DNA from: Alphaproteobacteria bacterium
GTDB lineage: Bacteria > Pseudomonadota > Alphaproteobacteria > Caedimonadales > UBA9215
Reading direction: 5' to 3'
Length of the DNA stretch: 64,000 nucleotides
Assembly (NCBI GenBank): GCA_024281375.1
Contig: JAJSAD010000044.1
Span: 5,614-69,613 of the forward strand
Positions 3,977-27,847 of this stretch are shown here, piece by piece (within the stretch, counting starts at the first letter, position 1; each line of letters opens with the position of its first letter). The position numbers and the translations under genes are program-made. The notes beneath the pieces are model-generated. The model was not told the origin of the DNA. It was given only the letters and a program-made list of their open reading frames with translations, and did no database searches.

Positions 3977-4219
3977 AATACTTACTCTCTTTTAACCTGT
4001 GAATCTCAAATCTGCGGGACATCGTTTTCCTCACTTACAAAACGGTAAGCTCCGGGAACGCTGCCCTGGTTTTAAGACCCACAGATTAAAATATAGTTAG
4101 GTATTACCTAAAGGCTCTTTTAACCTATGGTTCTCAAACGAGATTCTCGCCTTGACAGGGGCTTTTGTCAAGACGACTATAGGGAAGAATTGATATTGAG
4201 AGAAAGAAATATAAAAAAT

Positions 4220-6154
4220 ATGTGTGGTATTACGGGCTTTTGGAATCATAATAAGACGCGATCAGAAGAGGAGCTGCGGTTCATTGTCAAAACAATGGCC
4301 GAGCAAATTCGCCCCCGTGGTCCCGATGATTGTGGGGAGTGGGTCGAGAGTGAACAAGGTCTGGCCTTGGGACATCGTCGCTTGTCTATTGTAGATTTAT
4401 CCCCCGCAGGACACCAACCCATGACCTCAGCGTGCGGGCGATATATCATCATTTATAATGGTGAGATTTATAATGCGCCCGATATAAAAGCGGAGATTTT
4501 AAAAGAGCATTCTCTTTCTTTTCAAGGCACCTCAGATACGGAAGCCCTCCTTGAGGGCTGTGCTCTTTGGGGGGTAAAGGCAACGGTCTCAAAATGTATT
4601 GGTATGTTTGGTTTTGCCCTTTGGGATCGGCGCGACAAAGTCCTGACCCTTGTTAGAGACCGTATGGGTATTAAGCCTCTTTATTGGGGATGGCAAGGAG
4701 AGGGCGCGTCCAAGACCTTCTTTTTTGGATCACAACTCAAGAGTTTTAAACCTCACCCTAGATGGAACCCCCAGATTGATCAAACCATTGTGACATCTTA
4801 TTTACGCTATGGTTATGTACCAGCCCCTCGGAGTATTTATCAGAATATTCATCAACTGGACCCTGGTCATATCTTGACCGTTAACGAATCAGGAACGATA
4901 AATGATGAGGCCTATTGGCGCCTTGAGGACCATGTCACAACCGCGCCCGTGCATAACGACCCAACACAGGCCCTTGATCAACTAGAAGACCTTTTAAAGG
5001 ATGCTGTGGGGCGTCGTATGGTCGCTGATGTGCCCTTGGGGGCTTTCCTATCAGGGGGTATTGATAGCTCCCTTGTGGTGTCCTTGATGCAAGCGCAATC
5101 AACGCGCCCTGTGAAGACTTTTTCCATTGGGTTTGATCAACCAGAATATAATGAGGCTCCCTATGCCAAAGCCATTGCACAGCACTTGGGGACAGATCAC
5201 ACAGAGATGTATGTCCCCGTTGAAGAGGCCGCCGATGTCATTCCTCAAATCCCTGAATTTTATGATGAGCCTTTTGCGGACTCCTCTCAAATTCCAACCT
5301 ATTTAGTCTCGAAAATGGCCCGAGAACATGTCACCGTTTCCTTATCAGGAGATGGGGGTGATGAGTTATTTACGGGCTATAATCGATATTTTTATACGCA
5401 GCAATTATGGGGAAAATTTTCCTGGATGCCAGCACCTTTAAGAAAAGCGATGGCCGCAGGAATTACAACCCTTTCCGAAGAAAGTTGGGACACCCTTGGA
5501 CGCCTGATTCCTGAAAAGCTTCGCCCGAAATACGTGGGGCAAAAAGCCCATAAGGTTGCAAAAATTATGCAACGCCCAACGGAAGAAGGGCTGTACCAAT
5601 CCCTTATTAGTCAGGCTCATACCCCGGAAAAATATTCTCTATCAGCCCAAGAAAACCCTGATTGGGAACACCTCTTAAAGCGAGATGACTTTCCTGGATT
5701 GATCGAGTATATGCAGTACCTCGATATGAAGACCTATTTGCCCAATGACATCCTCACCAAGGTGGATCGGGCGAGCATGGCCGTGAGTCTTGAGGCCCGT
5801 GTTCCTTTACTGGATCACCGTGTTGTTGAGTTCGCAGCAGCCATGCCCTTGAACCTCAAAATCAAGGACAACAAAGCGAAATGGCCCCTGCGTCAGATTT
5901 TAAATCGCTATGTTCCCTCGGAAATGGTTGAGCGTCCTAAGACAGGATTTGGGATTCCCATCCATAATTGGTTGCGAGGGCGCTTAAAAAACTGGGGGGA
6001 AGAGCTGCTGAGTGAGACGTCGTTGCGGGATACTCAAATGCTGAATCCTCATACGGTTCGGTCGTTATGGGAAGGGTATCAAAAGGGTGAAAACCAAGAA
6101 GCCTACAGCCTCTGGACCATGCTTATGCTCCAAGCGTGGCACCGGACAGTCTAG
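4220..6154 (+). CDS. asnB: asparagine synthetase (glutamine-hydrolysing), AsnB/WbpS-like amidotransferase
   Basis: MCGITGFW (Cys2 is the Ntn nucleophile, so the start is ATG 4220, not 4127). HRRLSIVDLS and the PP-loop FLSGGIDSSLVV are present. Confidence 0.9.
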   Translation: MCGITGFWNHNKTRSEEELRFIVKTMAEQIRPRGPDDCGEWVESEQGLALGHRRLSIVDLSPAGHQPMTSACGRYIIIYNGEIYNAPDIKAEILKEHSLSFQGTSDTEALLEGCALWGVKATVSKCIGMFGFALWDRRDKVLTLVRDRMGIKPLYWGWQGEGASKTFFFGSQLKSFKPHPRWNPQIDQTIVTSYLRYGYVPAPRSIYQNIHQLDPGHILTVNESGTINDEAYWRLEDHVTTAPVHNDPTQALDQLEDLLKDAVGRRMVADVPLGAFLSGGIDSSLVVSLMQAQSTRPVKTFSIGFDQPEYNEAPYAKAIAQHLGTDHTEMYVPVEEAADVIPQIPEFYDEPFADSSQIPTYLVSKMAREHVTVSLSGDGGDELFTGYNRYFYTQQLWGKFSWMPAPLRKAMAAGITTLSEESWDTLGRLIPEKLRPKYVGQKAHKVAKIMQRPTEEGLYQSLISQAHTPEKYSLSAQENPDWEHLLKRDDFPGLIEYMQYLDMKTYLPNDILTKVDRASMAVSLEARVPLLDHRVVEFAAAMPLNLKIKDNKAKWPLRQILNRYVPSEMVERPKTGFGIPIHNWLRGRLKNWGEELLSETSLRDTQMLNPHTVRSLWEGYQKGENQEAYSLWTMLMLQAWHRTV

Positions 6155-6253
6155 AGTCATTCCAAAAAATCCCAGACGTCGTCAATCGTTCCTAGATTAT
6201 AAGAGATAGTCGTCGTCCCCTCTTTCCTAGACTGGAACCTTTTTGAATTGACT
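6155..6253 (+). repeat. palindromic MITE/RPE-like element, complete copy a
   Basis: AGTCATTCCAAAAAATCCCAGACGTCGTCAATCGTTCCTAG...CCTAGACTGGAACCTTTTTGAATTGACT. The ends are imperfect inverted repeats. The copy fills the whole gap between the asnB stop (6152-6154) and the convergent dsbA-like stop (6254-6256). Related copies lie at 18481, 19018, 27397 and 27869. Confidence 0.85.
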
Positions 6254-6922
6254 CTAAGTAGAAATCTTATCAGCGATTTTTAAGATCTCATCAAGTTTTT
6301 TTGTGAGGTCTTTTGGCGTGATGCCTTTGTTAATGAGGAGGTTTTTCTCAACGCCGTTAACCTTATAAAAAAGATGAAAGGTTGGGGTGGCTTCGATATC
6401 GATGACTTGTTCGGCATTAAAGCGTTTGGCCATGATAAGCTCTTTTGTATGTTCGCAGGCTCGGGCCGCTTTGCAATCTTCGGGTGAGATACCCAGGATT
6501 TTTGCTAATGTTTCAGGAGGTTTTCCAATCCATTCTTCTTGACGTTCATAAGCAATATCCAAAAGCCCCATCCATTTATCATGGGGTTGTTTAGCCACAA
6601 GGCTCATGTATTCAACGGCTTGATAATCCAAGGGAAAGTGCTTGAAAACCATCTGCACTTTTTTAGTATCAATGTATTTTTCTTTCAGGTTTTGAAAAGC
6701 TTTGTGGTGGAAATTTGCGCAATGAGTACAGTTAATAGACGAGTACTCTACCAACATAATAGGGGCCTCATCGGTGCCTAAAACAATGTCGTCTAGCTCT
6801 GAATAAACCTGGATTTCCTCTATTTTTTGTTCAGAAACGGGTTGCTTTTCCTGTGCGGCATGAAGCGCAAAAGAAGAGAGTGACAGAGTCAGCGCAAGGA
6901 GGAGGGGACGCAATAATATCAT
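6254..6922 (-). CDS. periplasmic DsbA-family thiol:disulfide oxidoreductase
   Basis: Signal peptide MILLRPLLLALTLSLSSFALHA and the thioredoxin CxxC motif SINCTHCANFH. Confidence 0.8.
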   Translation of the reverse strand: MILLRPLLLALTLSLSSFALHAAQEKQPVSEQKIEEIQVYSELDDIVLGTDEAPIMLVEYSSINCTHCANFHHKAFQNLKEKYIDTKKVQMVFKHFPLDYQAVEYMSLVAKQPHDKWMGLLDIAYERQEEWIGKPPETLAKILGISPEDCKAARACEHTKELIMAKRFNAEQVIDIEATPTFHLFYKVNGVEKNLLINKGITPKDLTKKLDEILKIADKIST

Positions 6923-10038: not shown

Positions 10039-10111
10039 AAAATGCCCTAGGAGGGCAGGTGAAAAAGCGTTATACTGTCTATAAAATAAGAATAAAGTAG
10101 ATGGGTTGCCC

Positions 10112-10495
10112 ATGGAACCTCTTGAAGGTCCCCTTAGTCTGATTAAGGAATATTTCCCTGTTTTAATGTTTTTGGTTGTGGCCGTTGCTTTGTCCTGTGT
10201 GATGATCCTTATTGGTTTTTTGCGAGGCCCCCATAAGCCTGATGTTGAAAAGCTCTCGGCTTATGAATGCGGGTTTGAGCCCTTTAGCGATGCCCGTATG
10301 AAGTTCGATGTGCGCTTTTATCTGGTTGCTATTCTCTTTATTATTTTCGATCTTGAAATCGCCTTTTTGTTTCCCTGGTCCATTACCTTAGGACAACAAG
10401 GGAATCTTGGGTTTTGGTCTATGATGATCTTCCTGGGAATTCTAACAGTTGGCTTTATTTATGAATGGAAAAAGGGAGCCTTAGAATGGGAATAA
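10112..10495 (+). CDS. nuoA: NADH-quinone oxidoreductase subunit A
   Basis: ND3/NuoA signature [10 protein letters not shown]...[14 protein letters not shown] 10112 is preferred over TTG 10106. Confidence 0.9.
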
Positions 10496-11094
10496 TCAGC
10501 CCTAATAAAAAGCTCCTTTCACAGGAAAATATCCGGCCTATTAAGGCCCATAATCCTTTTGATATTATGTCTAATAAACCCAAAGACATTTCTCCCGAGG
10601 ATGTTACCCAGCACTTGCAACAAGAAACCTCTGATAAAGGCTATATCCTGGCAAAGCTTGATGAGGTAGCGGCTTGGGCTCAGGCAGGGTCTTTGTGGCC
10701 CATGACTTTTGGTCTGGCGTGTTGCGCCGTTGAAATGATGCAAACAGCGGCCAGTCGCTATGACTTAGATCGTATTGGAACGGTGTTTCGACCCAGTCCG
10801 CGTCAATCAGATTTACTCATTGTTGCAGGGACGTTGACCAATAAAATGGCGCCTGCGTTTCGCAAAGTTTATGATCAAATGGCAGAGCCTCGTTATGTGC
10901 TTTCCATGGGTTCCTGTGCCAATGGCGGGGGATACTATCACTATTCCTATGCGGTCACCAGGGGCTGTGATCGCATTGTGCCTGTAGACGTTTATGTCCC
11001 AGGATGTCCGCCAACGGCTGAGGCTCTTTTATATGGCATTATGCTGTTGCAAAAGAAGATTCGCAGCCAAGGCACACGTATGATAACACGATAG
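10486..11094 (+). CDS. nuoB: NADH-quinone oxidoreductase subunit B
   Basis: [20 protein letters not shown] and VPGCPP Fe-S ligand motifs. There is a long N-terminal extension. The start is ATG 10486 or 10465. Confidence 0.9.
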
Positions 11095-11117
11095 AAAAAC
11101 GGTAAAGATTTGAAAAA

Positions 11118-11750
11118 ATGGCAGAATCCTTAGAACAGGTTTATACAAAAATAAAAAAGCACTTTGGGGATGATGTTTTGCGCGTAAATCGCAAGGGGTT
11201 TGAGCTTTCTGTGACCGTTGAGCGTTTGAAAATTGCAGAGGTCTTAGCTTATTTAAGGGATCAAAAAGACCTCGCTTTTAAACAATTAACGGATATTTGT
11301 GGGGTTGATTATTTAGATCGCAAAGAGCGTTTTGAGGTAATCTATCATGTCCTTTCCTATAAATATAATTTACGTCTCCGTCTTAAAATACGGGCCACCG
11401 AGGAGGATTTTGTGCCGTCAATTTCTAAGGTTTTTAGTGCAGCCAATTGGTACGAGCGGGAGATTTGGGATATGTATGGTATCCGATTTGATGGCCATTC
11501 TGATTTGCGCCGCATCCTTACGGATTATGATTTCGATGGCCATCCTTTGCGTAAAGACTTCCCGCTTACGGGCTATGTAGAGCCCCGCTATGATGATGAG
11601 CAAAAACGCGTTGTGTATAATCCCGTAAAGCTTCCTCAAGAATTTAGAAATTTTGATTTCTTGAGTCCTTGGGAAGGCATGACTCCTGAGTTGATGGTTA
11701 CACTTCCAGGAGATGAAAAAGCAACCGCAGATGATAAAAAAACGGCCTAG
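11118..11750 (+). CDS. nuoC: NADH-quinone oxidoreductase subunit C
   Basis: 30-kDa subunit motifs ANWYEREIWDMYGIRFDGH and LRKDFPLTGY. Confidence 0.9.
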   Translation: MAESLEQVYTKIKKHFGDDVLRVNRKGFELSVTVERLKIAEVLAYLRDQKDLAFKQLTDICGVDYLDRKERFEVIYHVLSYKYNLRLRLKIRATEEDFVPSISKVFSAANWYEREIWDMYGIRFDGHSDLRRILTDYDFDGHPLRKDFPLTGYVEPRYDDEQKRVVYNPVKLPQEFRNFDFLSPWEGMTPELMVTLPGDEKATADDKKTA

Positions 11751-11759
11751 ATATATAAA

Positions 11760-12944
11760 ATGAGTGATCTTTCTAAAAGCGAGTCGACCTATCAATTAAA
11801 TTTCGGGCCTCAACATCCTGCGGCCCATGGCGTGTTGCGTCTTATTTTAGAGCTGGATGGCGAGGTGGTTGAGCGAGCTGATCCTCATATCGGATTTTTG
11901 CATCGAGGGACTGAAAAGCTCATCGAACATAAAACCTATATGCAAGCGGTCCCTTATTTTGATCGCTTGGATTATGTAGCTCCTATGTGTCAGGAACATG
12001 CTTTTGCCTTGGCCGTTGAAAAGCTTCTGGGCCTTGAGGTGCCGTTGCGGGCCCAATATATACGGGTACTCTTTTCTGAGATTTCAAGGCTGTTGAATCA
12101 TATCTTAAATCTGACGACCTATGCTCTTGATGTGGGGGCTATGACACCGCTGTTATGGGGGTTTGAAGAACGCGAAAAGCTTATGAGTTTTTACGAGCGC
12201 GTTTCAGGGGCGCGCATGCATGCGAACTACTTCAGGCCTGGGGGTGTGGCCCTGGATCTCCCCATTGGTTTGTTGGAGGATATCCATGCTTTCATAGAAT
12301 ATCACACCGTTTTTATTGATGATATGGAGCGTCTTTTAACGGACAATCGCATTTTTAAGCAACGCACCGTTGATATCGCTATTGTCTCGAAGGACCAAGC
12401 TTATGATTGGGGCTTTACGGGTCCTATGTTGCGTGCTTCTGGTGTGCCCTGGGACTTGCGCCGTTCCCAACCTTATGATGCGTATGACAAGATTGATTTT
12501 AAGGTGCCCACAGGAACCCATGGAGATTGTTATGATCGTTATCTCGTGCGGGTTGAAGAAATGCGCCAGAGCCTCAAAATTATGGATCAATGCTTGAAGG
12601 ATATGCCTGAGGGGCCGCACCGTACCAAAAGTGCAAAGGTTTCTCCGCCGTCACGCCATGATATGAAAAACTCTATGGAAGCGATGATTCATCATTTTAA
12701 GCTCTACACAGAAGGGTATCATGTGCCAGAAGGCGAGACTTACACAGCCGTTGAGGCCCCTAAGGGAGAATTCGGAGTGTACCTGATTTCCGATGGTTCT
12801 AATAAACCTTATCGATGTAAAATCAGAGCCCCCGGATTTGCCTTTTTACAAGGGATGGAGTTTATGGCAAAAGGGCATATGTTGGCGGATATTCCCGCGA
12901 TTATTGGCTCTATGGATATCGTCTTTGGAGAGGTTGATCGATGA
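11760..12944 (+). CDS. nuoD: NADH-quinone oxidoreductase subunit D
   Basis: 49-kDa subunit: [15 protein letters not shown] and the C-terminal GEVDR. Confidence 0.95.
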
Positions 12945-13531
12945 AACGCAATACGCTTTTAGCCCAAGAGGCTCCCTTTGTTTTTTCTGCTGAAAACCTC
13001 AAGAAACTCAAAGCTGTTCAGGCCAAATATCCCAAAGAACGACAAGCCAGTGCTGTGATGCCGGCCCTTGAGTTGGCTCAACGTCAAAATGGGGGGTGGA
13101 TTCCAAGAGAAGCCATTGAAACAATTGCAACGCTGCTTGCTATGCCCGCTATAAAAGTGTGGGAAGTGGCCAGTTTTTACACTATGTATAACCTGCAACC
13201 CATTGGGAAACATTTAATTCAAGTCTGTCGTACCACCAGTTGTTGGTTGCGCGGGGCCGATGATGTTTTGAAAGCCTGTAAAAAACACAGCGGGGCTGAT
13301 GTAGACAAAATTTCTGAGGATGGGTGTTTTTCTTTAATGGAAGTTGAATGTTTGGGAGCTTGTGTGAATGCGCCTATGGTTCAAATTAATGATGATTATT
13401 ACGAAGATTTAGACCCTGAGAAAGTGGAAAAAATTATAGAGGATTTGCGGGCCGGCAAGGATATCAAAGCGGGACCTCAGATCGATCGATTGAATTCTGC
13501 CCCCGTTGGTGGCTCTAAGACAGTGACATAA
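12941..13531 (+). CDS. nuoE: NADH-quinone oxidoreductase subunit E
   Basis: 24-kDa subunit with 2Fe-2S cysteines ([22 protein letters not shown]). The start overlaps the nuoD stop (ATGA). Confidence 0.9.
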
Positions 13532-13548
13532 ATAGGTGAACAAGATAA

Positions 13549-14814
13549 ATGCTAGACAATAAAGATCGTATTTTTCAAAACTTATATGGCCAAAATTCTT
13601 GGAGCCTTGGGGCTGCCAAAAAGCGAGGGGACTGGAAAAATACTAAGGACTTTGTCAAAAAAGGGCGGGAATGGATCGTGAATGAAGTCCTCCTTTCTGG
13701 CCTTCGGGGTCGGGGAGGGGCTGGTTTCTCAACAGGTCGTAAATGGTCTTTCATGCCAAAGGAGGCACCACTCCCGTCTTATATAGTGATTAATGCCGAT
13801 GAAAGTGAACCGGGGACTTGCAAAGATCGTGATATTATTCGTCACGAACCCCATAAGATTATCGAGGGCGCTCTTTATGCCGGTGTGGCCATTGGGGCTC
13901 ATGCCGGCTATATCTATATTCGAGGGGAATTTTTTAGGGAAGCTGAGACTTTACAAGCCGCTATTGACGAGGCTTATAAGGATGGACTTCTTGGTAAAAA
14001 TGCCGCAGGTAGTGGCTATGATTTCGACCTTTATCTCCATCGTGGCGCCGGGGCTTATATTTGTGGAGAGGAATCTGCTTTGCTCCAAAGCCTTGAAGGT
14101 AAAAAGGGCATGCCCCGCTTAAAGCCTCCTTTTCCGGCGAACTGTGGTTTATATGGCTGTCCCACAACGGTTAATAATGTTGAAACCATTGCGGTTGTGC
14201 CCACGATTTTGCGCCGCGGAGGCACCTGGTTTGGCGGCTTTGGCCGTCCTGATAATACAGGGACAAAGGTTTTTTGTATTTCAGGGCATGTGAACACTCC
14301 TTGTAATGTGGAAGAAGAAATGGGGATCCCCATGAAAACCCTCATTGAAAAACATGCTGGAGGGGTGCGAGGCGGTTGGGATAACTTATTGGCGGTGATC
14401 CCCGGAGGCTCTTCAACCCCTATGGTGACTCAGGAAATTGCAAGCGATCTTCATATGGATTTTGAAAGCCTAAGTAGAGTCGGGACGGGCCTTGGAACCG
14501 CCTCGCTTATTGTGATGGATAAATCGACGGATATTGTTGAAGCGATTGTGCGCCTCTCGCACTTTTATATGCATGAAAGTTGTGGTCAATGCACCCCATG
14601 CCGCGAAGGAACCGGTTGGGTTTGGCGGCTTTTGAAGAAAATTGGGGATGGGGAGGGGGACCTTGCGGATATCGATAAATTGGAAGAGCTCACCTATCAA
14701 ATTGAGGGTCATACCATTTGTGCGCTAGGAGATGCAGCCGCTTGGCCTGTGCAAGGTTTATTGAAACACTTTAGACCAGAGTTAGAAAGACGCGTTCGCC
14801 TGGTGGCGGCATAG
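13549..14814 (+). CDS. nuoF: NADH-quinone oxidoreductase subunit F
   Basis: [16 protein letters not shown] site, the [13 protein letters not shown] motif and the [12 protein letters not shown] 4Fe-4S site. Confidence 0.95.
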
Positions 14815-14842
14815 AAAATTAAAAAGAATATAGGTATCTTAA

Positions 14843-16933
14843 ATGCCAAAAATTACAATCGATGGACGGGAAATTGAGGTTGAGGCGGGCACAACGGTTT
14901 TGCAAGCTGCGCGTCAACTGAAAACGGAAATTCCTGTTTTTTGTTACCATGAGCGCCTAGATGTCGCGGGGAACTGCCGCATGTGCTTGGTGGAACAAGA
15001 AAATGCGCCAAAACCTATTGCGAGCTGTGCTATGCCGGTGATGGATGGCATGGTGATTCGTACCAACACGGAAAAAGTGCAAAAGGCCCGAGAAGGGGTG
15101 TTAGAATTTTTGCTGATGAACCACCCTTTGGATTGTCCTATTTGCGATCAGGGCGGGGAGTGTGATCTCCAAGACATTACAATGTCTTATGGCCGTGGGG
15201 AAAGCCGTTATGACTGCCATAAACGGGCTGTTCCTGAAAAATATATGGGGCCGTTGATTAAGACTTTTATGACCCGTTGTATTCATTGCACAAGATGCGT
15301 GCGCTTTGCAGATCGTGTGGGAGGCTCCCCAGAACTGGGGGGAGTTGCCCGTGGTGAAAATGCTGAAATCACGACTTATTTAGATGCGTCGATTAAGACA
15401 GAACTCGCCGGGAACTTGGTAGATGTCTGTCCCGTTGGCGCGTTAACATCGCGTCCGTATTCCTATCAAGGGCGTCCTTGGGAATTACGCCGCACGAACT
15501 CCATTGATGTGCATGATGCTGTGGGGAGTAATATTTCCGTGCAGACTTTTGGCATGAAAGTGCGACGGATTCTCCCTCGAGTGCACGAAGGTATTAATGA
15601 AGAATGGATTTCCGACAAAACGCGTCATGCCTGTGATGCCTTGGCTTTACAGCGTTTAGATCAGCCTTATATCAAAGAAAAAGGCAAGTTACGCCCTGCT
15701 ACTTTTGAGGAAGCTTTTTCAAAAATCGCCTCAAAGCTCAAAAAAATTGACGGCAAAAAGGTGGCGGCCCTTGCGGGTGATTTGGCGGACTGTGAATCTA
15801 TGTTGGCCCTTAAAGATTTGATGACTGGATTGGACTCACCCCATCTGGATTGTGTGATTGATAACGCTGCTTTGTCAACAAAAACGAGGGGACAGTATCT
15901 TTGCAATACACCTATTGCCGACCTTGAAAAAGTGGATTTCACGTTGATTATTGGGGCAAATATCCGAGCCGATGCCGCCATGGTTCACACGAGATTGCGC
16001 AAACGTTATCTTCAAGGGGGCTTTAAGGCTGCTTATGTTGGGGGCGCTCTTGATGTGGATCGTGACTTTACTTTTGCTTATGAAAACCTCGGGGATGATC
16101 CTGCTATTTTGGAAACTCTTTTAGCGGGAAAGCATAGTATTTCTAAAAAGCTTAAAGTGGCTAAAAATCCTATCATCATCGTGGGTTATGATGCGTTAAA
16201 ACGCTCCGATGGCAAGGCTATTCTGACAAAGGCCTCTGATATTGCACAGAAATATAAGGTCATCAAGGAAGGATGGAACGGCTTTAATGTGTTGCACAAG
16301 GCTGCATCGAGGGTAGGGGGGCTGGACCTCGGCTTTACGCCTCAGCGCGGTGGTTTTGATAAAATGAAAATCGAAAAAGCCTGTGAAAGCGGCGACATTG
16401 AGTTCCTTTATCTTCTGGGGGTTGATGACGAAATTTGTCCTACAAAAACCAAAAAGGCCTTCAAAGTTTACCAAGGTCATCACGGAGATGTGGGGGCACA
16501 TAATGCGGATGTTGTGTTACCAGGGGCTGCTTATACGGAAAAAAATGCAACTTATGTGAATCTTGAAGGACGTGTTCAGCAAACCTATTTAGCGTTGAAT
16601 TCACCGGGAGAAGCCAAAGAGGATTGGAAGATCTTACGGGCTTTGTCGGCTGTGTTGGAGGCTGCAAAAGTAGGTAAAACCTTACCTTATGAGACGTTGG
16701 AAGACGTGCGGGAGCATTTGATAAAAGTGAATCCTATTTTCAAAACATTGGACGAAATCGTCCCCGCAACGTGGGAACCTCTTGCCTCGAAGACAGCTCT
16801 CAAAAATACGAACTTTCCCCCCTCGCCCTTTGATTTTTATAGGACGAATGTGATTGCAAGGCAGTCGCCAACCATGGCAAAATGTGTGCAAGAACTCTGT
16901 CATCCTGAACCTATGGAGAAAGCCTGTGTTTGA
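14843..16933 (+). CDS. nuoG: NADH-quinone oxidoreductase subunit G
   Basis: 75-kDa subunit: [35 protein letters not shown] and [10 protein letters not shown]. Confidence 0.95.
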
Positions 16934-16934
16934 T

Positions 16935-17948
16935 ATGATTCCAACCATTTGGATAGAAAATCTGCAATATGGGGCCGTGACCTTAGGTTATGTGTTGCTC
17001 ATTGTGCTGCCTCTTATTCTGTCCGTGGCCTATCTGACCTATGCAGAACGTAAAGTCATTGGCTACATGCAACTGCGTAAAGGTCCCAATACCGTTGGTC
17101 CTTTTGGGCTCCTGCAACCCATTGCTGATGCGGTTAAGTTGATGCATAAGGAAATTATTATCCCTAGCCGTGCCAACCCGATTCTCTTTTTGATGGCACC
17201 GGTTATTACCTTTACGCTCTCGCTCATTGCGTGGTCTGTGATTCCCTTTGGGGAAGGGGTGGTGCTCTCGAATATAAACGTGGGCATCTTGTTTTTGTTT
17301 GCGGTTTCTTCCTTGGAAGTTTATGGCGTCATCATTGCGGGGTGGTCCAGTAACTCAAAATACCCCTTCTTGGGCGCTATGCGTTCAGCGGCGCAAATGG
17401 TTTCTTACGAAGTTTCCATGGGCTTTATTATTGTAAGCGTTCTCCTGTGCGTTGGATCTTTAAATATCACGGACATTGTCATGGCTCAAAAAGGGTTCTG
17501 GTTCGCTATTCCGTTATTTCCCTTAATGATTATGTTCTTTATTTCGACCCTTGCGGAAACAAATCGGGCGCCCTTTGATTTGCCCGAAGCCGAGGCTGAA
17601 CTTGTATCAGGCTATAATGTTGAATATTCGTCCATGCCTTTTGCGCTCTTTTTCCTGGGCGAATACGCCAACATGATCTTGATGAGTGCCATGACAACCA
17701 TTCTCTTTCTGGGCGGTTGGTTGCCTCCCTTTGAAATAGCGCCTTTCACTTGGGTTCCGGGATTTGTGTGGTTTGCTTTAAAAATAGCCATGGTGCTCTT
17801 TTGCTTTTTATGGGTCAGAGCGTCGTTGCCGCGTTATCGTTATGATCAATTAATGCGCTTGGGCTGGAAAGTTTTCCTGCCCTTTTCGTTGGGATGGCTC
17901 GTTTTAACGGCAAGCTTTCTTTTTTACACAGATAATTTACCGACTTAA
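16935..17948 (+). CDS. nuoH: NADH-quinone oxidoreductase subunit H
   Basis: ND1 family ([42 protein letters not shown]). The start is moved to ATG 16935, directly after the nuoG stop. The track start 16854 overlaps nuoG by 80 nt. Confidence 0.9.
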
Positions 17949-17986
17949 AGGTCAAATGCAAGACCTGGCTAAAAGGATATAGACAG

Positions 17987-18478
17987 ATGACACGTTTTTT
18001 CTACCGCCTTAAATCATTTGCCTTGCTGGATATCATTGCGGGCATGAGCCTCACCCTGAAGTATTTTTTTAAACCAAAAGTCACCTTAAATTACCCCCAT
18101 GAAAAGGGGCCTTTGAGCCCGCGTTTTCGGGCCGAACATGCATTGCGGCGTTATCCAAATGGCGAGGAACGTTGCATTTCTTGCAAGCTTTGTGAGGCTG
18201 TTTGCCCCGCACAAGCCATTACCATTGAGGCTGCTCCCCGAAAAGAAGACGGGAGTCGTCGCACGGTGCGTTACGATATTGATATGACAAAATGCATCTA
18301 TTGTGGCCTTTGCCAGGAATCCTGTCCTGTAGACTCTATCGTTGAGGGTCCCAATTATGAGTTCTCAACCTTCACAAGAGAAGAGCTCTTTTATACAAAA
18401 GACAAACTTCTCGACAATGGCGATCGCTGGGAAGAACTCCTTGCCGAAAATATCAAACGCGAAGAGCGCTATCATTAA
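17987..18478 (+). CDS. nuoI: NADH-quinone oxidoreductase subunit I
   Basis: Two ferredoxin motifs, [12 protein letters not shown] and [12 protein letters not shown]. Confidence 0.95.
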
Positions 18479-18480
18479 CT

Positions 18481-18584
18481 GTAGCCATTTCCAAAAAGTC
18501 CCCAGACGTCGTTATTGCGCTCCTCACCTATAAAAGATAGACCTCGTCGCTGATGCCTAGACTGGAACCTTTTTGGAAAGACTG
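18481..18584 (+). repeat. palindromic MITE/RPE-like element, complete copy b
   Basis: GTAGCCATTTCCAAAAAGTCCCCAGACGTCGTT...GCCTAGACTGGAACCTTTTTGGAAAGACTG. Begins 2 nt after the nuoI stop and has the same arms as copy a. Confidence 0.85.
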
Positions 18585-18620
18585 TATTTTTTTTTAAAAG
18601 TTAACAGATTAACCATTCTG

Positions 18621-18636
18621 TTAACTTTTTGTTAAC
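18621..18636 (+). promoter_or_regulatory. CtrA-type box TTAA-N7-TTAAC inside a cluster of four TTAAC pentamers (18601-18636)
   Basis: TTAACTTTTTGTTAAC. Further TTAAC pentamers start at 18601 and 18609. GTTAACAG(18600-18607)/CTGTTAAC(18618-18625) also form an 8-bp inverted repeat. Confidence 0.35.
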
Positions 18637-18638
18637 CT

Positions 18639-18995
18639 TTGAGCGATACAAAGGAGAAAGAACAGGTAGGTCCCCGAAAAAACATGACTGACACCCCAGC
18701 AGGAAACAGGAAAAAGATTGCTATAGGTGAGAATGACGTCGCTCTCATCTTTAAAGAAGACGGTCATGTGGACTTATCCTTTCCGGAGATTTCGGATGAA
18801 CATGTTCCAGAGCATGTGATGGCAGCCTTGGCTCTTTCATATGCGGTGGTGGACGAAGAGTTTTTTGCGATTATACAGGATCGCTTTGCTCAGCAAGCTG
18901 CTATGACATTGGAAGAGGAAGCTCGGGAAAGAAATGCAGCAATAAAGAAAGAGGATGGATCGGTTACAACCCCTCATTTGAAAGTTGTTTCATAA
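18639..18995 (+). CDS. hypothetical acidic protein (orphan), bracketed by inverted repeat-element copies
   Basis: 118-aa ORF from TTG 18639. ATG 18684 (MTDTPAGNRKK...) is the more likely start. No recognisable domain. Confidence 0.4.
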   Translation: MSDTKEKEQVGPRKNMTDTPAGNRKKIAIGENDVALIFKEDGHVDLSFPEISDEHVPEHVMAALALSYAVVDEEFFAIIQDRFAQQAAMTLEEEARERNAAIKKEDGSVTTPHLKVVS

Positions 18996-19017
18996 AATAA
19001 TGTTTTTAATTGCACGC

Positions 19018-19081
19018 TAGTCTAGGAAAGAGTGCCGACGACGACCCCCTTGTAGTTTAGGAACGATTGACGACGTCTGAG
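19018..19081 (-). repeat. palindromic MITE/RPE-like element, core-only copy c (inverted orientation)
   Basis: The reverse complement reads CAGACGTCGTCAATCGTTCCTAAACTACAAGGGGGTCGTCGTCGGCACTCTTTCCTAGAC. This matches the core of copy a (CAGACGTCGTCAATCGTTCCTAGATTATAAGAGATAGTCGTCGTCCCCTCTTTCCTAGAC). Confidence 0.8.
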
Positions 19082-19259
19082 GTGCTAGTAAGAACATAGT
19101 ATAAGAATAAACGGCAGGTTACAGGGTACTTACTCAACCTCGAGGGTCTTTATTGAGACCTTACGGGGTTTATTTTTGGCTTTTTGAAATGTCTATAGAT
19201 AAATTCGTGGTATTATTAAAAAGTATATTTTTCTTAAGAAGAGCAGAGTTTAAGTAAGA

Positions 19260-20606
19260 ATGTTAAAACTTTTTTTACAGGCTTCCTTATCAACATTGTG
19301 GGACAGATTGTCTTTGCAAGGTAAATGGCAGCAAGTGGCATCGGCTATTGAGGCGGATGCCCTTATCTGTAAAGACTCCTTAGATGAAGAAACCTTTCTC
19401 CAAAATCCCCTGATGCCTCAAATCATTATAGGGAAAAAAGACTCTGTTTTATCTGAATTCTCGTGTGAGATGTCTACTCTAAATGATATTCCCGTTATTT
19501 TAGAATCTCTTGAGGAGATTATAAGTAAGAGTCAGACCCTCCATAATAAAAAAATTCCCTATAAGAATGATCTTTTCCATACAGTTCTTGCTTTTATTTG
19601 GACAAGAGGGGGATATGTAAAAGCTCATCTTTCTCATACTTTAACATATGGTTATGGCTATCCTTTTATTGAGAAAATTTGTAAAATCATAACGCCGCCG
19701 CCTTGGAAACATCAAAACCAGCAGGCGTCTCCTATCGTCGGTCTTTTGAACCACCTAGAGAAATTGAAGCTTCTTTCATCCCATATCGTGGAAAGGGCAC
19801 ATTCCTGTCCATCTTGCGCAAGTTTGAATATTATCTTGAGAGATGGCTGTTCCCAGTGTCATTCTCCTCATATTAATAAACATAGTATTGTGCATCACTT
19901 CAAGTGTGCCTACCAAGCAGCTCAACATCACTTTATTCGTAATACAGACAAGATCGTTGAGTTTATCTGCCCACACTGTCATGAAGAACTGATTCATTTT
20001 GGTGTTGATTATGATAAACCCGGTGAGGTTTTCTTATGTGAAAACTGTCATTACGAAAGTTCTGATACCGTTGTGGTTGGCAGGTGCTTGAATTGCCAGT
20101 TTAGCTTTCGCTCAAATGAGACAGCTCAATGTGTGATCAAAGATTATATTTTGACGGCCCTTGGTCATCGGGCTGTGTTGAGTTTAAGTTCAGATATTTT
20201 TTCACAGATTGAAGAGCTCGCCGATGAAAAAGACCTCATTTCTTATGCTGAATTCTTGCGACATACAAAGCACTTGTCATCTTATAAAGAACGTTATGGT
20301 CTGGAAGGTTTAATCCTTTCTATACAGATTTCTCAGACCCAAGATGAGGGGCAAACATTAGAAGACGAAACTCTGCTTCGTACCATTGGAAAGACTATTT
20401 TAAGGGATACGCGCGAGGGAGATTTGATCAGTGTGCATGACGGTCATATTTTTATTTTGATGATGGGGGCTCAAGAAGACACTAAAGAACAGGCCATTGA
20501 ACATATTCAACAGCTCATTCATGAAACCTTTAATGAAGATATTTCCGATCACATCATCATTGAGGAATATATGTTAGAGAATGTTCTAAAAGATCAGGAG
20601 CATTAA
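19260..20606 (+). CDS. multi-CxxC zinc-ribbon protein with C-terminal degenerate GGDEF-like domain (I-site retained); candidate c-di-GMP receptor
   Basis: Five CxxC pairs between residues 183 and 279 (CPSC, CSQC, CPHC, CENC, CLNC). The C-terminal ~140 aa align by eye to GGDEF domains (DYILTALGHRAVL ~ D.LTGL.NRR.F). The motif TREGDLISVHDGHIFILM corresponds to RxxD-N5-GGDEF, with RxxD intact and GGDEF replaced by DGHIF. Confidence 0.6.
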   Translation: MLKLFLQASLSTLWDRLSLQGKWQQVASAIEADALICKDSLDEETFLQNPLMPQIIIGKKDSVLSEFSCEMSTLNDIPVILESLEEIISKSQTLHNKKIPYKNDLFHTVLAFIWTRGGYVKAHLSHTLTYGYGYPFIEKICKIITPPPWKHQNQQASPIVGLLNHLEKLKLLSSHIVERAHSCPSCASLNIILRDGCSQCHSPHINKHSIVHHFKCAYQAAQHHFIRNTDKIVEFICPHCHEELIHFGVDYDKPGEVFLCENCHYESSDTVVVGRCLNCQFSFRSNETAQCVIKDYILTALGHRAVLSLSSDIFSQIEELADEKDLISYAEFLRHTKHLSSYKERYGLEGLILSIQISQTQDEGQTLEDETLLRTIGKTILRDTREGDLISVHDGHIFILMMGAQEDTKEQAIEHIQQLIHETFNEDISDHIIIEEYMLENVLKDQEH

Positions 20607-21898
20607 TGGAAACGGCTTATGATTTTTTTACAAACCAAACCACTGACTCCTTTATTAGAAATTACTGGATTGTGGTTTTTGTGGAGATCCCTCGTTTTTT
20701 TATGGGGGGGCTTCTGGTTATTTTCAGTATTCTCTTTTTTAAAAGCAAAGGTCAGACACCTGAAAGGTTAAACCGGATGGGAGCACAGATATTGAAAAAA
20801 GGCGTTAGTATTATTATTGCCATGCATAACGAAGAAGAAGCCATATGCCGAGCCCTTTCTTCTTTAAATGAACTTTGTACAGAGAATAAAACAATTATCG
20901 TCGTTAATGATGGGTCGACAGATGACTCACACAACGTTTGCTTAAGCCTCAAGAAAAAAGGGTTGATCCAACATTATATTTATAATGAATCCAGAGGCGG
21001 GAAGGCTGCTGCCGTTAATTTAGGCATTAGATATGTGAAAACCGATTTTTTTGTTGTGATGGATGCGGATACTTCCTTTGATCGAGATGCCTTAAATATT
21101 GCAGCCGCTTATTTTGAAGATTCCCACGTAGGGGCCGTCGGGGGAAATTTGGCTGTTCGTAATTATAACGATAATTTAATCACACGAACACAACAAATAA
21201 ATTACCTTCTGTCTATTACGCTTGGAAGAATTGTTCGTGATATGCTTGGGTTTTACTTTGTGGCTTCTGGTGCTTTTAGTATGTATAGAACCACAGCTAT
21301 TCATCAGCTCGGCGGCTGGGGATTTGGTCCCGGTGAAGATGCTGATATTGCCATACGCCTGCGCATTGCAGGGTGGACTGTGAGATTTGCTTTTTTTGCT
21401 ACAGGACAAACGGCTGTTCCTGACAGCGCACCAGGACTCATCAAGCAGAGAATGAGGTGGGATCGATCCCTCATTCGATTAAGATATCGCAAATATCTAG
21501 GGCATGTTTTAAATCCTTTTCGAGCTTCGTTTAAACTTCCTCTGGCCCTCAGTTTTTTCGATATTTATTTCTTTACAGCTCTCCATCCTTTTTTATTCGT
21601 TGGGTTTGTCACGGAAAAAGTTGTCTTGTATGGGCCATCAGCACTCCTATTTATCATCACAACTATGTTTTTATTTTTGATTATAGATACCTTTAAAATC
21701 TTAATGGTTTTTGCGTTATTACGTTCTCAATATCATCAATACTCTTTATTGTTGTACGTTCCTTATTATACATTTTATAATATTTATTTTTTACGTTTCG
21801 TAAGACTATTTGCCGTTTGCCATGAACTTATTTTTAGGGGATCTTACAAGGATGATTATGTGCCTAAAAAAGTTAGAGATAAAATAAAAAGATATTAA
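20606..21898 (+). CDS. processive family-2 glycosyltransferase (PgaC/IcaA/NodC/BcsA-class membrane synthase)
   Basis: VNDGSTDDS, GGKAAAVNLG, the DxD motif VVMDADT, GPGEDADI and the QxxRW motif KQRMRWDRS. One N-terminal and several C-terminal TM segments. The start overlaps the upstream stop (TAATG). Confidence 0.85.
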   Translation: METAYDFFTNQTTDSFIRNYWIVVFVEIPRFFMGGLLVIFSILFFKSKGQTPERLNRMGAQILKKGVSIIIAMHNEEEAICRALSSLNELCTENKTIIVVNDGSTDDSHNVCLSLKKKGLIQHYIYNESRGGKAAAVNLGIRYVKTDFFVVMDADTSFDRDALNIAAAYFEDSHVGAVGGNLAVRNYNDNLITRTQQINYLLSITLGRIVRDMLGFYFVASGAFSMYRTTAIHQLGGWGFGPGEDADIAIRLRIAGWTVRFAFFATGQTAVPDSAPGLIKQRMRWDRSLIRLRYRKYLGHVLNPFRASFKLPLALSFFDIYFFTALHPFLFVGFVTEKVVLYGPSALLFIITTMFLFLIIDTFKILMVFALLRSQYHQYSLLLYVPYYTFYNIYFLRFVRLFAVCHELIFRGSYKDDYVPKKVRDKIKRY

Positions 21899-23062
21899 AT
21901 GAAACAGATAAATAATCAAAAAACAGCCTATAGAATTAAACGTGATAAACGGTCGTTCTCACTAAAATTTGGGCGTTACCTCTATCTCTTTGTTATTGCT
22001 CTTCTTTTTCTGTGGATTTTTCACCTAACCTTTTCCTTTTTATATTTATTAGATGGAGACGGTTTTTTGACGGCAGATAGTGAAATTGTTGCTTTTGAGT
22101 ATGACACTTCTCTGGAAACGATCCTTGTTGAGAATGGAGATGACGTTAAACAGGGGCAAGAACTTTTCAGGTATGATTCGTCTGACTATCGATTGCAGTT
22201 GGTTGATCTTCTTTTTAGACAAGTTAATCTGCTACAAGATTTTTCTGAAACGGGCGTGCATTTAAAGAAAATTGATGCCCAAATAGCCAGTACGAAAAAA
22301 TACTTAGGTGTTGCGAAAGGTATTGTGGATAAAATAAAAAAACTTGAAAAAAGGGAGTTGATATCCAATAGGCGTCGAAGCATAGAATACATGCGCTATT
22401 TTGATGCTCTCAAAGAATTTGAGGATTATACGGCGGAAAAGGGCGGTCTTTCTGCCCAGCACCATCAAATTAAGCAGAAATTACAGATGGTTGCAAAAAA
22501 TGTTACACACTTAGTGGATTCTTTTCATGAGGGGGTGGCCCGAGCCCCCATGGATGGTGTCGTTGGTGACTTAGAATTAGAACCAGGCTCTGTTGTTGAA
22601 AAATCTGAGCCTGTTTTGCGGATATTTTCAAATCTCCGTTACCTTCTTGTTTATTTTAAAAGTTCGTCTGTTTCAACAAAATTGGAGGATATTGTGATTG
22701 TTCATATTCCAGGAAAAGGATTTCATTTTGGAACGGTTGTGGACAGGGATCGTGTTGCCTCTTCAATTCCTGAAGAAATAAAACCAAAATTTCGCCCCGC
22801 AGAACGTCGCCGTGCCATGATCGTGATGATGGACCAAAAGGTTTTACGAGCGTCCCCCCTTATGAAGTCAATTCATGTCTACAAACCCATGGGCTTAGAA
22901 TCCCTTGTTGCTTTGTTTGATATTAAACGGGAGCACCACAAGGAATACAAAGCTTTCTTAAAAGAGCGCAAAAAACGTTTCGAAGATGTTCGCTCTAAAC
23001 ACTCACAATCAATGGCCGCCCTACATGATAAAGCCCGTGCTATAAAAACTTTTTCCGATTAA
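21899..23062 (+). CDS. HlyD-family periplasmic adaptor (membrane fusion protein)
   Basis: N-terminal TM helix YLYLFVIALLFLWIFHLTFSFLYLL. Split barrel-sandwich halves (VENGDDVKQGQELFRYD and RAPMDGVVGDLELEPGSVVEKSEPVLRI) flank a long coiled-coil region. The ATG directly abuts the upstream TAA. Confidence 0.8.
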   Translation: MKQINNQKTAYRIKRDKRSFSLKFGRYLYLFVIALLFLWIFHLTFSFLYLLDGDGFLTADSEIVAFEYDTSLETILVENGDDVKQGQELFRYDSSDYRLQLVDLLFRQVNLLQDFSETGVHLKKIDAQIASTKKYLGVAKGIVDKIKKLEKRELISNRRRSIEYMRYFDALKEFEDYTAEKGGLSAQHHQIKQKLQMVAKNVTHLVDSFHEGVARAPMDGVVGDLELEPGSVVEKSEPVLRIFSNLRYLLVYFKSSSVSTKLEDIVIVHIPGKGFHFGTVVDRDRVASSIPEEIKPKFRPAERRRAMIVMMDQKVLRASPLMKSIHVYKPMGLESLVALFDIKREHHKEYKAFLKERKKRFEDVRSKHSQSMAALHDKARAIKTFSD

Positions 23063-23907: not shown

Positions 23908-23922
23908 TTGACAAATAGTCAA
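23908..23922. promoter_or_regulatory. palindrome TTGACAAATAGTCAA (copy 1 of an exact 16-mer)
   Basis: TTGAC-N5-GTCAA inverted repeat. The 16-mer TTGACAAATAGTCAAA is identical to the one at 27929-27944. Confidence 0.4.
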
Positions 23923-24038: not shown

Positions 24039-24115
24039 GTGCCCGTAGCTCAGTTGGATAGAGCACAGGATTCCTAATCCTGGGGTCGGAAGTTCGAATC
24101 TTCTCGGGCACACCA
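24039..24115 (+). tRNA. tRNA-Arg (anticodon CCT)
   Basis: GTGCCCG/CGGGCAC acceptor stem, D-arm AGCTCAGTTGGATAGAGC, anticodon loop TTCCTAA, T-arm GGAAGTTCGAATCTTCT and an encoded CCA. Confidence 0.9.
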
Positions 24116-24292
24116 CTATTCTCAATAAGTCAAATTCAAAAAAAGGGGCTTTTGCAGCATAAATGAAATATCTAAGACTTTCCTGCCATTTCTGAAGCAT
24201 TACGGGGGTGTCTTTAAAGAAAAACTCACAAATCCCAAAAAAAGGCTTTCCTTTTAAGGCTGTTTTCGCTACAAAGAAGACATCCTAAGAGT

Positions 24293-24367: not shown

Positions 24368-24463
24368 TTCTTTTTCTATAAATCCACCTCTATTCCCCCC
24401 GTCGACCTTATCTTAAAAACGTGTATACTTTTCTTATAGTCGTTCCAAAAAGGTTTATGATAT

Positions 24464-27398: not shown

Positions 27399-27430
27399 CC
27401 ATTCTCAAAAAGCCCCAGACATCATTCACG
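27397..27430 (+). repeat. MITE/RPE-like element, left-arm-only copy d
   Basis: AGCCATTCTCAAAAAGCCCCAGACATCATT matches the left arms of copies a and b. The corC TAG (27396-27398) sits at the element edge. Confidence 0.7.
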
Positions 27431-27666
27431 TATAAATAAAATTTAGTAACTATAATGTTTTAGTCCAGACCAGAGCTCCCGGAAAATAAACCCAATCGGG
27501 TTGAAAATTAAATTTAGAAGCCGCTAAGAGAAAAAATCAACCCGAAAGGGTTGATTTCAGATTGGAGTCCCGGCCAAGCTAAAACATCCATATCATTTTC
27601 CATAATATATATTATGCGACTTATCTATCTTAAATATGCAACTTTTCAGCACCCTCTTTATAAAGG

Positions 27667-27709
27667 CGGACATTTCCAAATTGCTCAACCGGACATTTCC
27701 AAATTGCTC
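27667..27709 (+). repeat. perfect 20-nt direct repeat, period 23
   Basis: CGGACATTTCCAAATTGCTC at 27667-27686 and again at 27690-27709. Confidence 0.9.
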
Positions 27710-27798
27710 TTACATATCCAAATAAAGTATTGAAACGTTTTTATCCAGAATATTATTCATAATCTTCTGAATGGAAATAAAAAAGTAAGCTGCAGAAG

Positions 27799-27847
27799 TG
27801 GTGTGCTCGAGAAGATTCGAACTTCCGACCCCAGGATTAGAAATCCT
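27799..27847 (-). pseudogene. tRNA-Arg 3' fragment (anticodon stem to CCA; TCT at the anticodon position)
   Basis: The minus strand reads AGGATTTCTAATCCTGGGGTCGGAAGTTCGAATCTTCTCGAGCACACCA. It differs at 2 positions from the same part of tRNA-Arg(CCT) at 24039-24115. No D-arm or 5' acceptor strand lies upstream. Confidence 0.8.

Follow-up and report, generated by a model that had tools for sequence, protein, structure and literature searches.

RUP is a 107-bp MITE (a miniature transposable element with inverted repeats) of Streptococcus pneumoniae that has been attributed to the insertion sequence IS630-Spn1 from the similarity of the arms and the use of TA targets (PMC2229807). A repeat of similar design is present in a 64,000-nt stretch of DNA from an uncultured alphaproteobacterium (GenBank assembly GCA_024281375.1, contig JAJSAD010000044.1, positions 5,614 to 69,613), which we call the window, and its copies there tend to lie at the 3′ ends of genes such as asnB and corC. 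We read the repeat as a TA-inserting MITE that is mobilized in trans, most probably by a DDE transposase of the IS630/Tc1-mariner type, and we give this reading a probability of roughly 0.8. Like RUP, it is about 107 bp long, has terminal inverted repeats, inserts at TA, and is intergenic and non-coding (PMC2229807), and in both cases the termini resemble an IS630-family element of the same host lineage. The two differ in that their sequences are unrelated and their hosts belong to different phyla. The RUP arms are also described as highly similar to IS630-Spn1, whereas the MITE described here, from the Holosporales, matches IS630-like ends over 11–12 nt only.

The Correia elements of Neisseria have arms of the form TATAG[CT]GGATTAACAAAAATCAGGAC, fall into size classes of 104–108, 153–157 and 69–73 bp, and duplicate their target; how they are mobilized was undetermined as of 2009 (PMC2649163). 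They had been named as a precedent in an earlier interpretation made from the letters of the window alone (hereafter the sequence-only reading), and they are indeed a good analogue. Both families duplicate TA, end in TATAG(T) with a run of A behind it and include a 106-bp class, and in neither has the mobilizing transposase been demonstrated. Both also have an arms-only mini form, which is 52 nt here (copy e) and 69–73 bp in Neisseria. They differ in that our arm consensus departs after TATAGT, the 155-bp class is not seen, and the host is alphaproteobacterial rather than betaproteobacterial. When the element is aligned to Correia repeat-enclosed elements (CREEs) from viral contigs, its whole length scores z = 3.4–6.1 over shuffles and its interior z ≤ 2.3. 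The family profile gives no match at E up to 10 in 24 CREE-bearing loci (L031–L054, where L-numbers designate loci retrieved from related metagenome-assembled genomes (MAGs), metagenome contigs and comparison genomes). Since the likeness is limited to the termini and the profile is blind to CREEs, membership in the Correia family was rejected and the family was kept as an analogue.

Two other comparisons concern intracellular bacteria. QMITE1 and QMITE2 of Coxiella burnetii are likewise MITEs of an intracellular bacterium whose gene-affecting insertions lie at 3′ ends and overlap the C-terminus. These overlaps are of 1–50 bp and do not materially change protein length (PMC5896051). Sequences and hosts are unrelated, and each QMITE2 copy has its own direct repeats instead of a fixed TA (PMC5896051). 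Rickettsia palindromic elements (RPEs) share with our family an alphaproteobacterial host of endosymbiont type, a size of about 100–150 bp and a palindromic design. RPEs insert in-frame within genes without an established target duplication (PMC2229807), whereas the Holosporales MITE shifts the frame, carries stops and is intergenic. The REP/BIME class, with its palindromes of 20–40 bp and no target duplication, was considered and rejected on the unit of ~106 bp, the 25-bp arms and the flanking TA; its RAYT partner was checked for only through Pfam scans of neighboring genes.

Anatomy, copies and host lineage

The family consensus is TA-TAGTCATTCCAAAAAGGTCCCAGACGTCGTCATTCGCTCCTAAACTATAAGAGATAGTCGTCGGTCGCTCTTTCCTAGACTGGAACCTTTTTGGAAAGACTA-TA, which can be abbreviated by its ends as TA-TAGTCATTCCAAAAAGGTCCCAGAC...CTAGACTGGAACCTTTTTGGAAAGACTA-TA. 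A unit of about 102 bp carries one TA on each side, giving about 106 bp, and an intact copy runs from TATAGTC to GACTATA. From TA to TA, intact copies measure 103–109 bp, which is too short for a transposase gene, and they have no coding capacity. The terminal inverted repeats are imperfect, 25–27 bp long, and start with TAGTC. Across 28 copies, 88% of the cells at the 25 paired arm positions hold standard pairs. There are at least three core subtypes: type 1 in copies a and c of the window, type 2 in copy b and in L004, L009 and L017, and type 3 in the copies of the MAG JAJRPZ01. An arm variant with CAATAAA instead of CAAAAAG is altered on both arms in L013 and L028b. Derivatives occur as right halves, left halves and the arms-only hairpin of copy e.

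The window contains two full-length copies and five fragmentary ones (Table 1). Five of these, a to e, had been listed by the sequence-only reading. Copies a, b, c and e are linked to one another both by blastn-short, with exact matches of 22 nt (a and c), 20 nt (a and b) and 17 nt (a and e), and by a profile built from 25 full-length copies. Copy d scores weakly in the profile by itself but is probably a left-arm remnant of the family; it is accepted from the comparison of its TATAGCCATTCTCAAAAAGCCCCAGAC with the consensus TATAGTCATTCCAAAAAGGTCCCAGAC, and it is close to the arm of L015. That list was sound as far as it went, but it overlooked fragments f and g. Its placements hold as well, although the boundaries should be extended to take in the flanking TA. 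Copy c had been described as an inverted core without arms. The inversion stands, but the left arm is still present, displaced by a 95-nt insert. The insert was checked as a possible second repeat family and is unique among all the DNA compared; it contains an apparent short hairpin, GGTCTCAATAAAGACC. The right-arm 20-mer CCTAGACTGGAACCTTTTTG occurs twice in the window against an expectation of 0.02, and the arm pattern TATAGTCNTTCCAAAAAG, with up to three mismatches, occurs eight times against an expectation of 0.29, a count that none of 100 shuffles reached. With only 73% identity between copies a and b, and with five of the seven copies reduced to fragments, the set in the window looks old and decaying. 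The piece retained in these remnants is often precisely the one that bears the stop codon of the neighboring gene.

Table 1. Copies of the element in the window and the genes that they adjoin (TA-to-TA boundaries for complete copies).
Feature	Position	Strand	Description	Profile E-value
Copy a	6152–6256	+	Full-length, type-1 core, both flanking TA included; TAGAGTC...GACTCTA	1.2e-29
Copy b	18480–18586	+	Full-length, type-2 core as in L004, L009 and L017	8.8e-27
Copy c, core	19018–19082	−	Type-1, inverted relative to b; right arm gone after CCTAGACTAG	5e-12
Copy c, insert	19083–19177	−	95 nt between core and left arm	
Copy c, displaced left arm	19178–19197	−	TATAGACATTTCAAAAAGCC	
Fragment f	24435–24454	+	Solitary terminal arm TATAGTCGTTCCAAAAAGGT; 0 mismatches to consensus over 20 nt	
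Copy d	27394–27432	+	Probable left-arm remnant TATAGCCATTCTCAAAAAGCCCCAGACATCATTCACG	0.16 (weak alone)
Copy e	27862–27917	+	Mini-element, two arms without core; perfect 52-nt hairpin	4e-5
Fragment g	49932–49961	−	Left-arm remnant TATAGTGCTTTCAAAAAAACTCCCAGAC; occupies the 27-nt spacer of convergent MFS and YjeF_N genes	
asnB (asparagine synthase)	4217–6154	+	Probable true start MCGITGF at 4217; open reading frame starts at 4127	
Thioredoxin_4-family gene	6254–6922	−	Convergent with asnB; stop made by the right terminus of copy a	
nuoI	17987–18478	+	Own TAA stop; last nuo gene here, followed by copy b	
corC (CBS and CorC_HlyC domains)	26550–27398	+	Stop supplied by remnant d	

The family had not been recognized from the window alone, and wider searches bear this out. 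Neither the whole window at the Rfam gathering thresholds nor 18400–19300 under permissive settings gave an Rfam match at the elements, and full-text literature searches that combined Holosporales with MITE or palindromic-repeat terms returned no description of the family. The right-arm 19-mer CTAGACTGGAACCTTTTTG was sought in 185,579 species-representative genomes (596 Gb), where we estimate that about four matches would arise by chance on both strands. All 30 of the matches found are in three MAGs labelled Holosporales or Alphaproteobacteria, namely CAXBEY01, DOCA01 (UBA9215) and JAJRPZ01, so the call for further copies in relatives was answered. In a metagenome scan, 19 contigs matched, of which 15 belong to the same organisms with identical flanks and 4 are bare chance matches; the viral contigs scanned with the 19-mer contained no copies. 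The profile recognizes 42 copies or fragments in the window and 30 loci. About 10 of these lack the exact 19-mer, so the copy counts are lower bounds.

Where they are syntenic, the window and CAXBEY01 share 70–77% identity at the DNA level. For the CorC of the window, identity is 87% with the protein of GCA_964351945.1 and about 50% with those of Paracaedimonas and Caedimonas. Judged by these identities, the organism is a further relative of the three MAGs. Within a single MAG, copies at unrelated loci are up to 98% identical, compared with 73% for copies a and b, and the family has therefore moved recently in the CAXBEY01 lineage, while it looks old in the window. The family is real, apparently undescribed, and confined to a small clade of uncultured Holosporales, and it belongs to a well-known kind of element.

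Insertion at TA and the ends of genes

The element is bounded by TA almost without exception. Among 28 copies, the outer TA is present in 25–26 of the left flanks and 27 of the right flanks, and the sequence further out is unconserved. The third position of TATAGTC varies among T, G and C while the outer TA is constant, which fits a TA duplication around an arm that starts with (T)AGTC. A C stands just ahead of the TA in 15 of the 28 copies and a G after it in 9, where each base has a background frequency of about 21%. The target is thus the TA dinucleotide with a weak preference for C-TA-G, and it is not the end of a gene as such.

Two orthologous positions allow filled and empty sites to be set side by side, and both agree with the empty site having a single TA. 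At the first, L028 has the element and L001 lacks it, and the flanks are 82% identical. L025 is filled (5488–5596) at the stop codon (TAA) of a cytochrome b561 gene, and the corresponding site of the window, near 6986, is empty and reads AAA-TAA-AGGTTGATT. In the closest relatives that could be retrieved, the element is absent after corC (L055) and after asnB (L079 and L080), which supplies the empty sites that had been looked for. The repeat is a small non-coding unit, inside the size range of about 100–400 bp usual for MITEs, with terminal inverted repeats, a TA target-site duplication and dispersed, polymorphic copies. Because orthologous sites are filled or empty, copies at unrelated loci are nearly identical, and the flanking TA is invariant, the family is, on this comparative evidence, a nonautonomous transposon of the MITE class, in agreement with the proposal of a nonautonomous mobile repeat.

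The earlier proposal held further that the element targets gene ends or provides them. The first half reduces to a tendency. Using a simple heuristic that calls nonoverlapping open reading frames of at least 90 aa as genes, we find 34 copies with two called neighbors, and 11 of these lie in convergent spacers, 17 in codirectional and 6 in divergent ones; the 203 background spacers comprise 35, 130 and 38, respectively. By tallied distances, 45 element ends face the 3′ end of a gene, and 21 of them overlap it or come to within 12 nt; of the 32 that face a 5′ end, only 2 do so. The association with 3′ ends is a strong tendency, real but not absolute, and the exceptions include the copies in divergent spacers and fragment f, which ends 9 nt ahead of the start codon of a fliI/T3SS-ATPase gene (24464) and so lies at a gene 5′ end.

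The second half, that the element provides gene ends, holds in several cases. It supplies the stop codons of asnB, the thioredoxin-like gene, corC and the YjeF_N gene in the window, and those of three genes in related MAGs. The spacer between asnB and the convergent thioredoxin-like gene is wholly occupied by copy a, as had been noted, and the two stop codons are its two terminal triplets, the TAG at 6152–6154 and, on the other side, the CTA at 6254–6256. Inside its flanking TA, copy a starts with G and finishes with C, which turns each TA duplicate into a TAG; the third base of either stop codon therefore comes from copy a. Without the insertion, the site is reconstructed as GTC-TA-AGT, in which asnB would have ended in TAA and the thioredoxin-like gene in TAG, with the two overlapping by the TA. 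At corC, the flanking TA of copy d falls inside the last sense codon, ATA, and the TAG of the arm (27396–27398) is the stop, again as had been noted. The stop of the YjeF_N gene (49957–50598, − strand) is the TAG at 49957–49959 inside fragment g. The statement that nuoI keeps its own TAA (18476–18478) with an element TAG (18482–18484) three nucleotides behind it is also correct. Copy b begins 1 nt past that TAA, and a run of nine T follows the copy. In L005, L006 and L025, the reading frame of the gene extends into the element for exactly 27 nt (9 codons) and closes at the TAG of CCTAG.

The frame in which a gene runs into the element determines where it stops. When the TA occupies codon positions 2–3, as at corC and the YjeF_N gene, translation that enters from either side ends immediately at the TAG of the arm in 23 of the 28 copies analyzed. 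When it occupies positions 1–2, for instance inside TAA or TAG, the stop comes after 9 codons upon entry from the right or about 14 upon entry from the left. In about 40% of copies, the remaining frame runs open from one end of the element to the other. It had been asked whether the element had replaced the native C-termini of AsnB and CorC. AsnB ends in ...QAWHRTV at a normal length, its relatives end in ...HRQSI, ...HRHS or ...QRHKSLL, and its Pfam domain extends to residue 673 of 675. CorC has a tail of 6 aa (DAGTSI) past the conserved RISKK, where orthologues have 3–9 aa. Since both ends are normal by comparison with orthologues, no meaningful native C-terminus has been replaced. At its other end, the asnB reading frame and the NCBI call (675 aa) start 30 codons ahead of the conserved MCGITGF (window 4127–4216), and the homologues with listed N-termini (638–654 aa) all start MCG; the annotated start is probably too early.

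A role as a transcription terminator had also been suggested. No terminator picked up by consensus scans around copies a, b and c coincides with the elements, and there is no consistent T run in the flanks of the 28 copies. A short G+C-rich stem-loop followed immediately by a T run is not present at a, b or c, with copy b alone followed by a T run at all, and the intrinsic terminator was rejected as an explanation. Correia elements are further characterized by outward promoters, an IHF site and RNase III processing; here, a simple consensus scan found no promoters in or at copies a, b and c.

Mobilization and competing readings

We propose that a transposase provided in trans moves the element, most probably a cut-and-paste DDE enzyme of the IS630/Tc1-mariner type. 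The element inserts at a TA dinucleotide and duplicates it. The stop codons TAA and TAG and A+T-rich spacers would present such targets. With a TAG at the start of each arm, a gene interrupted in its last codons would terminate at once if the TA fell on codon positions 2–3. Insertions at or just past a stop codon would be nearly harmless and would survive in compact genomes, and those in promoters or inside genes would be purged, so that a selective filter may produce the concentration at gene 3′ ends. An IS630-type transposase is the most likely mobilizer because TA duplication is a hallmark of the group, RUP sets a precedent, DDE_3 remnants are present in the lineage, and insertion sequence ends that begin TA-TAGT are found there. 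IS630 itself is reported to show a CTAG target preference, and the bias for C before the TA fits it. ISY100, a member of the Tc1/mariner/IS630 family, is reported to transpose in vitro, with the transposase as the sole protein that excision requires (PMC2170065).

The search for a partner comprised tblastn with IS630-like proteins, a protein search with the tail of the L028 transposase, and the metagenome scan. DDE_3 transposase fragments are present in L028, at a contig end of the MITE-bearing MAG UBA9215, and in L056. L058, from a metagenome, holds a near-complete IS630-like element of 982 bp, with ends TA-TAGTCTTTTATG... and TA-TAGTATTTTAGG..., and the transposase fragments of L058 and L028 share 72% identity. 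The protein search with the L028 tail returned only fragments at contig ends; MAG contigs break at insertion sequences. All the IS630-like ends found start TA-TAGT, with TATAGTCTTTTATGTTATTG and TATAGTATTTTAGGTTATTG in L058 and TATAGTAGTTTAGTTTTGG in L028 and L059, and elements of the same lineage end in TA-TAGTCTTTT. Their first 11–12 nt are identical to the MITE variants L003 and L009.

Several observations weigh against this account. What the IS630-like ends and the MITE variants have in common is only TATAGTCTTTT(A). Because they diverge after about 12 nt, the ends fall short of identifying the true parent of the MITE. An autonomous element with full-length matching arms was not found in the loci or the metagenome contigs, and there is no IS630 transposase within the window. 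The copies were gathered by an exact right-arm 19-mer, which biases both the number of copies and the seeming constancy of that arm. The junction as TA, and not as a longer duplication, is the most parsimonious reading rather than a base-perfect proof, since the flanks of the genomes compared are only about 71–82% identical. Two species, represented by L010 and L015, have kept one insertion at a common site, and the element is 87% identical between them. The arms covary beyond independent decay, with 9 of the 25 pairs changed on both sides, a number that none of 500 shuffles reached; pair 8–107, for example, is A-U seven times, G-C seven times and U-A three times. A simple parasite model does not require such covariation, which may come from founders of subfamilies with symmetric arms or from selection on the hairpin. 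TA duplication, finally, is also made by other transposase families, and the window itself contains a truncated IS5-family transposase (38664–39260, − strand) with DUF4096 and a partial DDE_Tnp_1.

The last point prompts one to ask if the same MITE is driven instead by an IS5-family transposase like those of IS427 or IS1301. Some members of that family, such as IS1301, duplicate TA within a YTAG-like target, which would fit the C-TA-G bias. However, neither arm-like sequence nor terminal repeats are visible around the fragment at 38664–39260, and the terminus TATAGTC(T)TTT is seen only on IS630-like elements (HTH_Tnp_IS630 with DDE_3), so we regard an IS5 driver as improbable. A different question, compatible with an origin as a MITE, is whether the element has been exapted as a hairpin of about 100 nt kept for an RNA or DNA role at gene ends. 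It could stabilize mRNA 3′ ends, be a site of RNase III processing, keep convergent transcripts apart, or provide outward promoters of the kind reported for Correia, ERIC and related elements. Besides the covariation and the shared L010/L015 site, the over-representation of convergent spacers speaks for it, and so do some of the folds. Stable folding, which the sequence-only reading had put up for checking, is found for copy e (−22.9 kcal/mol, z = −5.2) and the minus strand of copy a (−32 kcal/mol, z = −2.8), but the folds of copy b are no more stable than those of shuffled sequence (z = −1.4 and −1.9). The right-arm consensus also has TAGACT 17 nt ahead of the terminal TATA, which could with a suitable flank make a putative outward sigma-70-like promoter, as in Correia elements. 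On the other hand, the sites of the closest relatives are empty, so the neighboring genes do not need the element, and most copies in the window are single arms that are unable to form the hairpin. Six of the 34 copies are in divergent spacers and fragment f is at a 5′ end, no terminator-like stem with a T run is found, and symmetric arm variants can come from subfamily founders or shared ancestry without selection on RNA. We consider exaptation unlikely on balance, though it deserves more weight than an IS5 driver. Less credible again, if only slightly, is a pair of ideas: that the likeness to Correia reflects common descent or a common transposase class, or, independently, that the MITE has been recruited as a two-sided gene-end cassette of stop codon and hairpin. 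The cassette is suggested by the covarying arms and by the stop-bearing arm kept at four genes of the window. That both families end in TATAGT and measure 106 bp gives a lead on the Correia connection but does not test it.

Two further readings can hardly be credited. If the repeats were conserved, immobile terminators or regulatory palindromes inherited vertically at fixed positions, which is the outcome that the sequence-only reading had named as its refutation, the orthologous site shared by L010 and L015 would be expected, and the thioredoxin-like gene does have an element or remnant next to it in L025 as in the window. This reading is already refuted by dozens of copies at unrelated loci, differences between filled and empty orthologous sites, the flanking TA, identities of up to 98% between loci, and the want of terminator anatomy. 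If the element instead spread like an RPE, by in-frame insertion into genes to which it adds peptide segments, then the alphaproteobacterial host of intracellular type, the size of about 100 bp, the palindromic design and the one frame that is open throughout some 40% of copies would all be in keeping. But about 104 bp are added, which is not a multiple of 3, so insertion shifts the reading frame, and two of the three frames stop within 0–14 codons from either end. No copy lies inside a convincing gene beyond C-terminal overlaps of at most about 10 codons; the copies are intergenic, and the spanning reading frames in L010 (105 aa) and L020 (open to the end of the locus) look like artefacts of the gene-calling heuristic. 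The flanking TA duplication is present besides. This idea is thus already contradicted, and RPEs, which the sequence-only reading had offered beside Correia elements, fail as a precedent. We therefore retain the TA-inserting MITE with a probable IS630-type mobilizer.

Neighboring rearrangements and the meaning of the family

Synteny breaks at one of the elements. The convergent neighbor of the thioredoxin-like gene is asnB in the window, but in the CAXBEY01 MAG (L025) an ABC1-kinase gene takes that place. The junction holds the full element in the window and a left-half remnant in L025 (6317–6368), and asnB has yet other neighbors in the relatives L079 and L080. This suggests a rearrangement at or through copies of the MITE. 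Adjoining copy e is a 57-nt copy of the 3′ part of tRNA-Arg(CCT) (27797–27853, − strand), which is inverted with respect to, and 93% identical to, 24061–24117 (+ strand) in the intact gene 3.7 kb away; tRNA-Val, fliI, ybeY and corC lie between. The fragment may mark an old integration or an inversion breakpoint. It is contained in the interval between copies d and e (27430–27868), which resembles a graveyard of mobile DNA. A 34-nt piece there (about 27595–27628, TTTTCCATAATATATATTATGCGACTTAT...) is 97% identical to a sequence beside an IS630-type DDE_3 remnant in L056 (2169–2202) and is also found in L057, and an apparent tandem pair, ggacatttccaaattgctc, is visible by eye at about 27669–27707. 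The interval was tried as another repeat family and rejected, only the 34-nt piece (L056 and L057) and the tRNA-Arg fragment being shared. The IS5-family fragment discussed above adjoins tRNA-Val(GAC).

Other features of the window are separate from the MITE. A 15-nt palindrome, TTGACAAATAGTCAA, and its variants are intergenic at 23908–23922, 27929–27943, 48405–48419 and 45097–45110, with weaker examples near 28775 and 63108, and a similar palindrome, TTAACAAATAGTTAA, is found in L056 near 3115; it could be a putative binding site for a regulator, distinct from the MITE. Direct repeats of 120 nt that are 88% identical (32428–32547 and 33384–33503) bracket a reading frame of 268 aa (32550–33356, − strand) with no Pfam or NCBIfam match, and the whole, 32428–33503, may be another mobile or duplicated unit. 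The reading frames at 10106–18478 resemble nuoA to nuoI by order and size, with a Pfam check made for nuoI only. The cluster ends at nuoI, and the genes in 18639–23062 are not nuoJ–N. What follows nuoI is a reading frame of 118 aa without assigned function, between the oppositely oriented copies b and c, and then a TackOD1-domain protein, a family-2 glycosyltransferase and an HlyD-like adaptor. Outside the window, a noncoding block of about 130 nt (L010 1040–1230, L015 1675–1826) is conserved between two MAGs more than its surroundings. It is bracketed by inverted CTATAGGAACCTCTGCAAAA, adjoins the shared MITE insertion and has no Rfam match, and it could be an undescribed small RNA.

No new mechanism emerges from the family. 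The one matter of wider interest is how TATAG-ended MITEs relate to IS630-like elements, a link that is unproven; if the connection to Correia were true, the IS630-like elements with TA-TAGT ends would hint at the class of enzyme that moves Correia elements. For genomes of the Holosporales, the family is a practical marker in annotation, as it explains odd gene ends, several transposon-derived stop codons and at least one break in synteny. It also illustrates cleanly that stop codons can be occupied at almost no cost by a MITE that inserts at TA and has TAG in both termini, and in this way it helps explain why MITEs pile up at the 3′ ends of genes in compact intracellular genomes.

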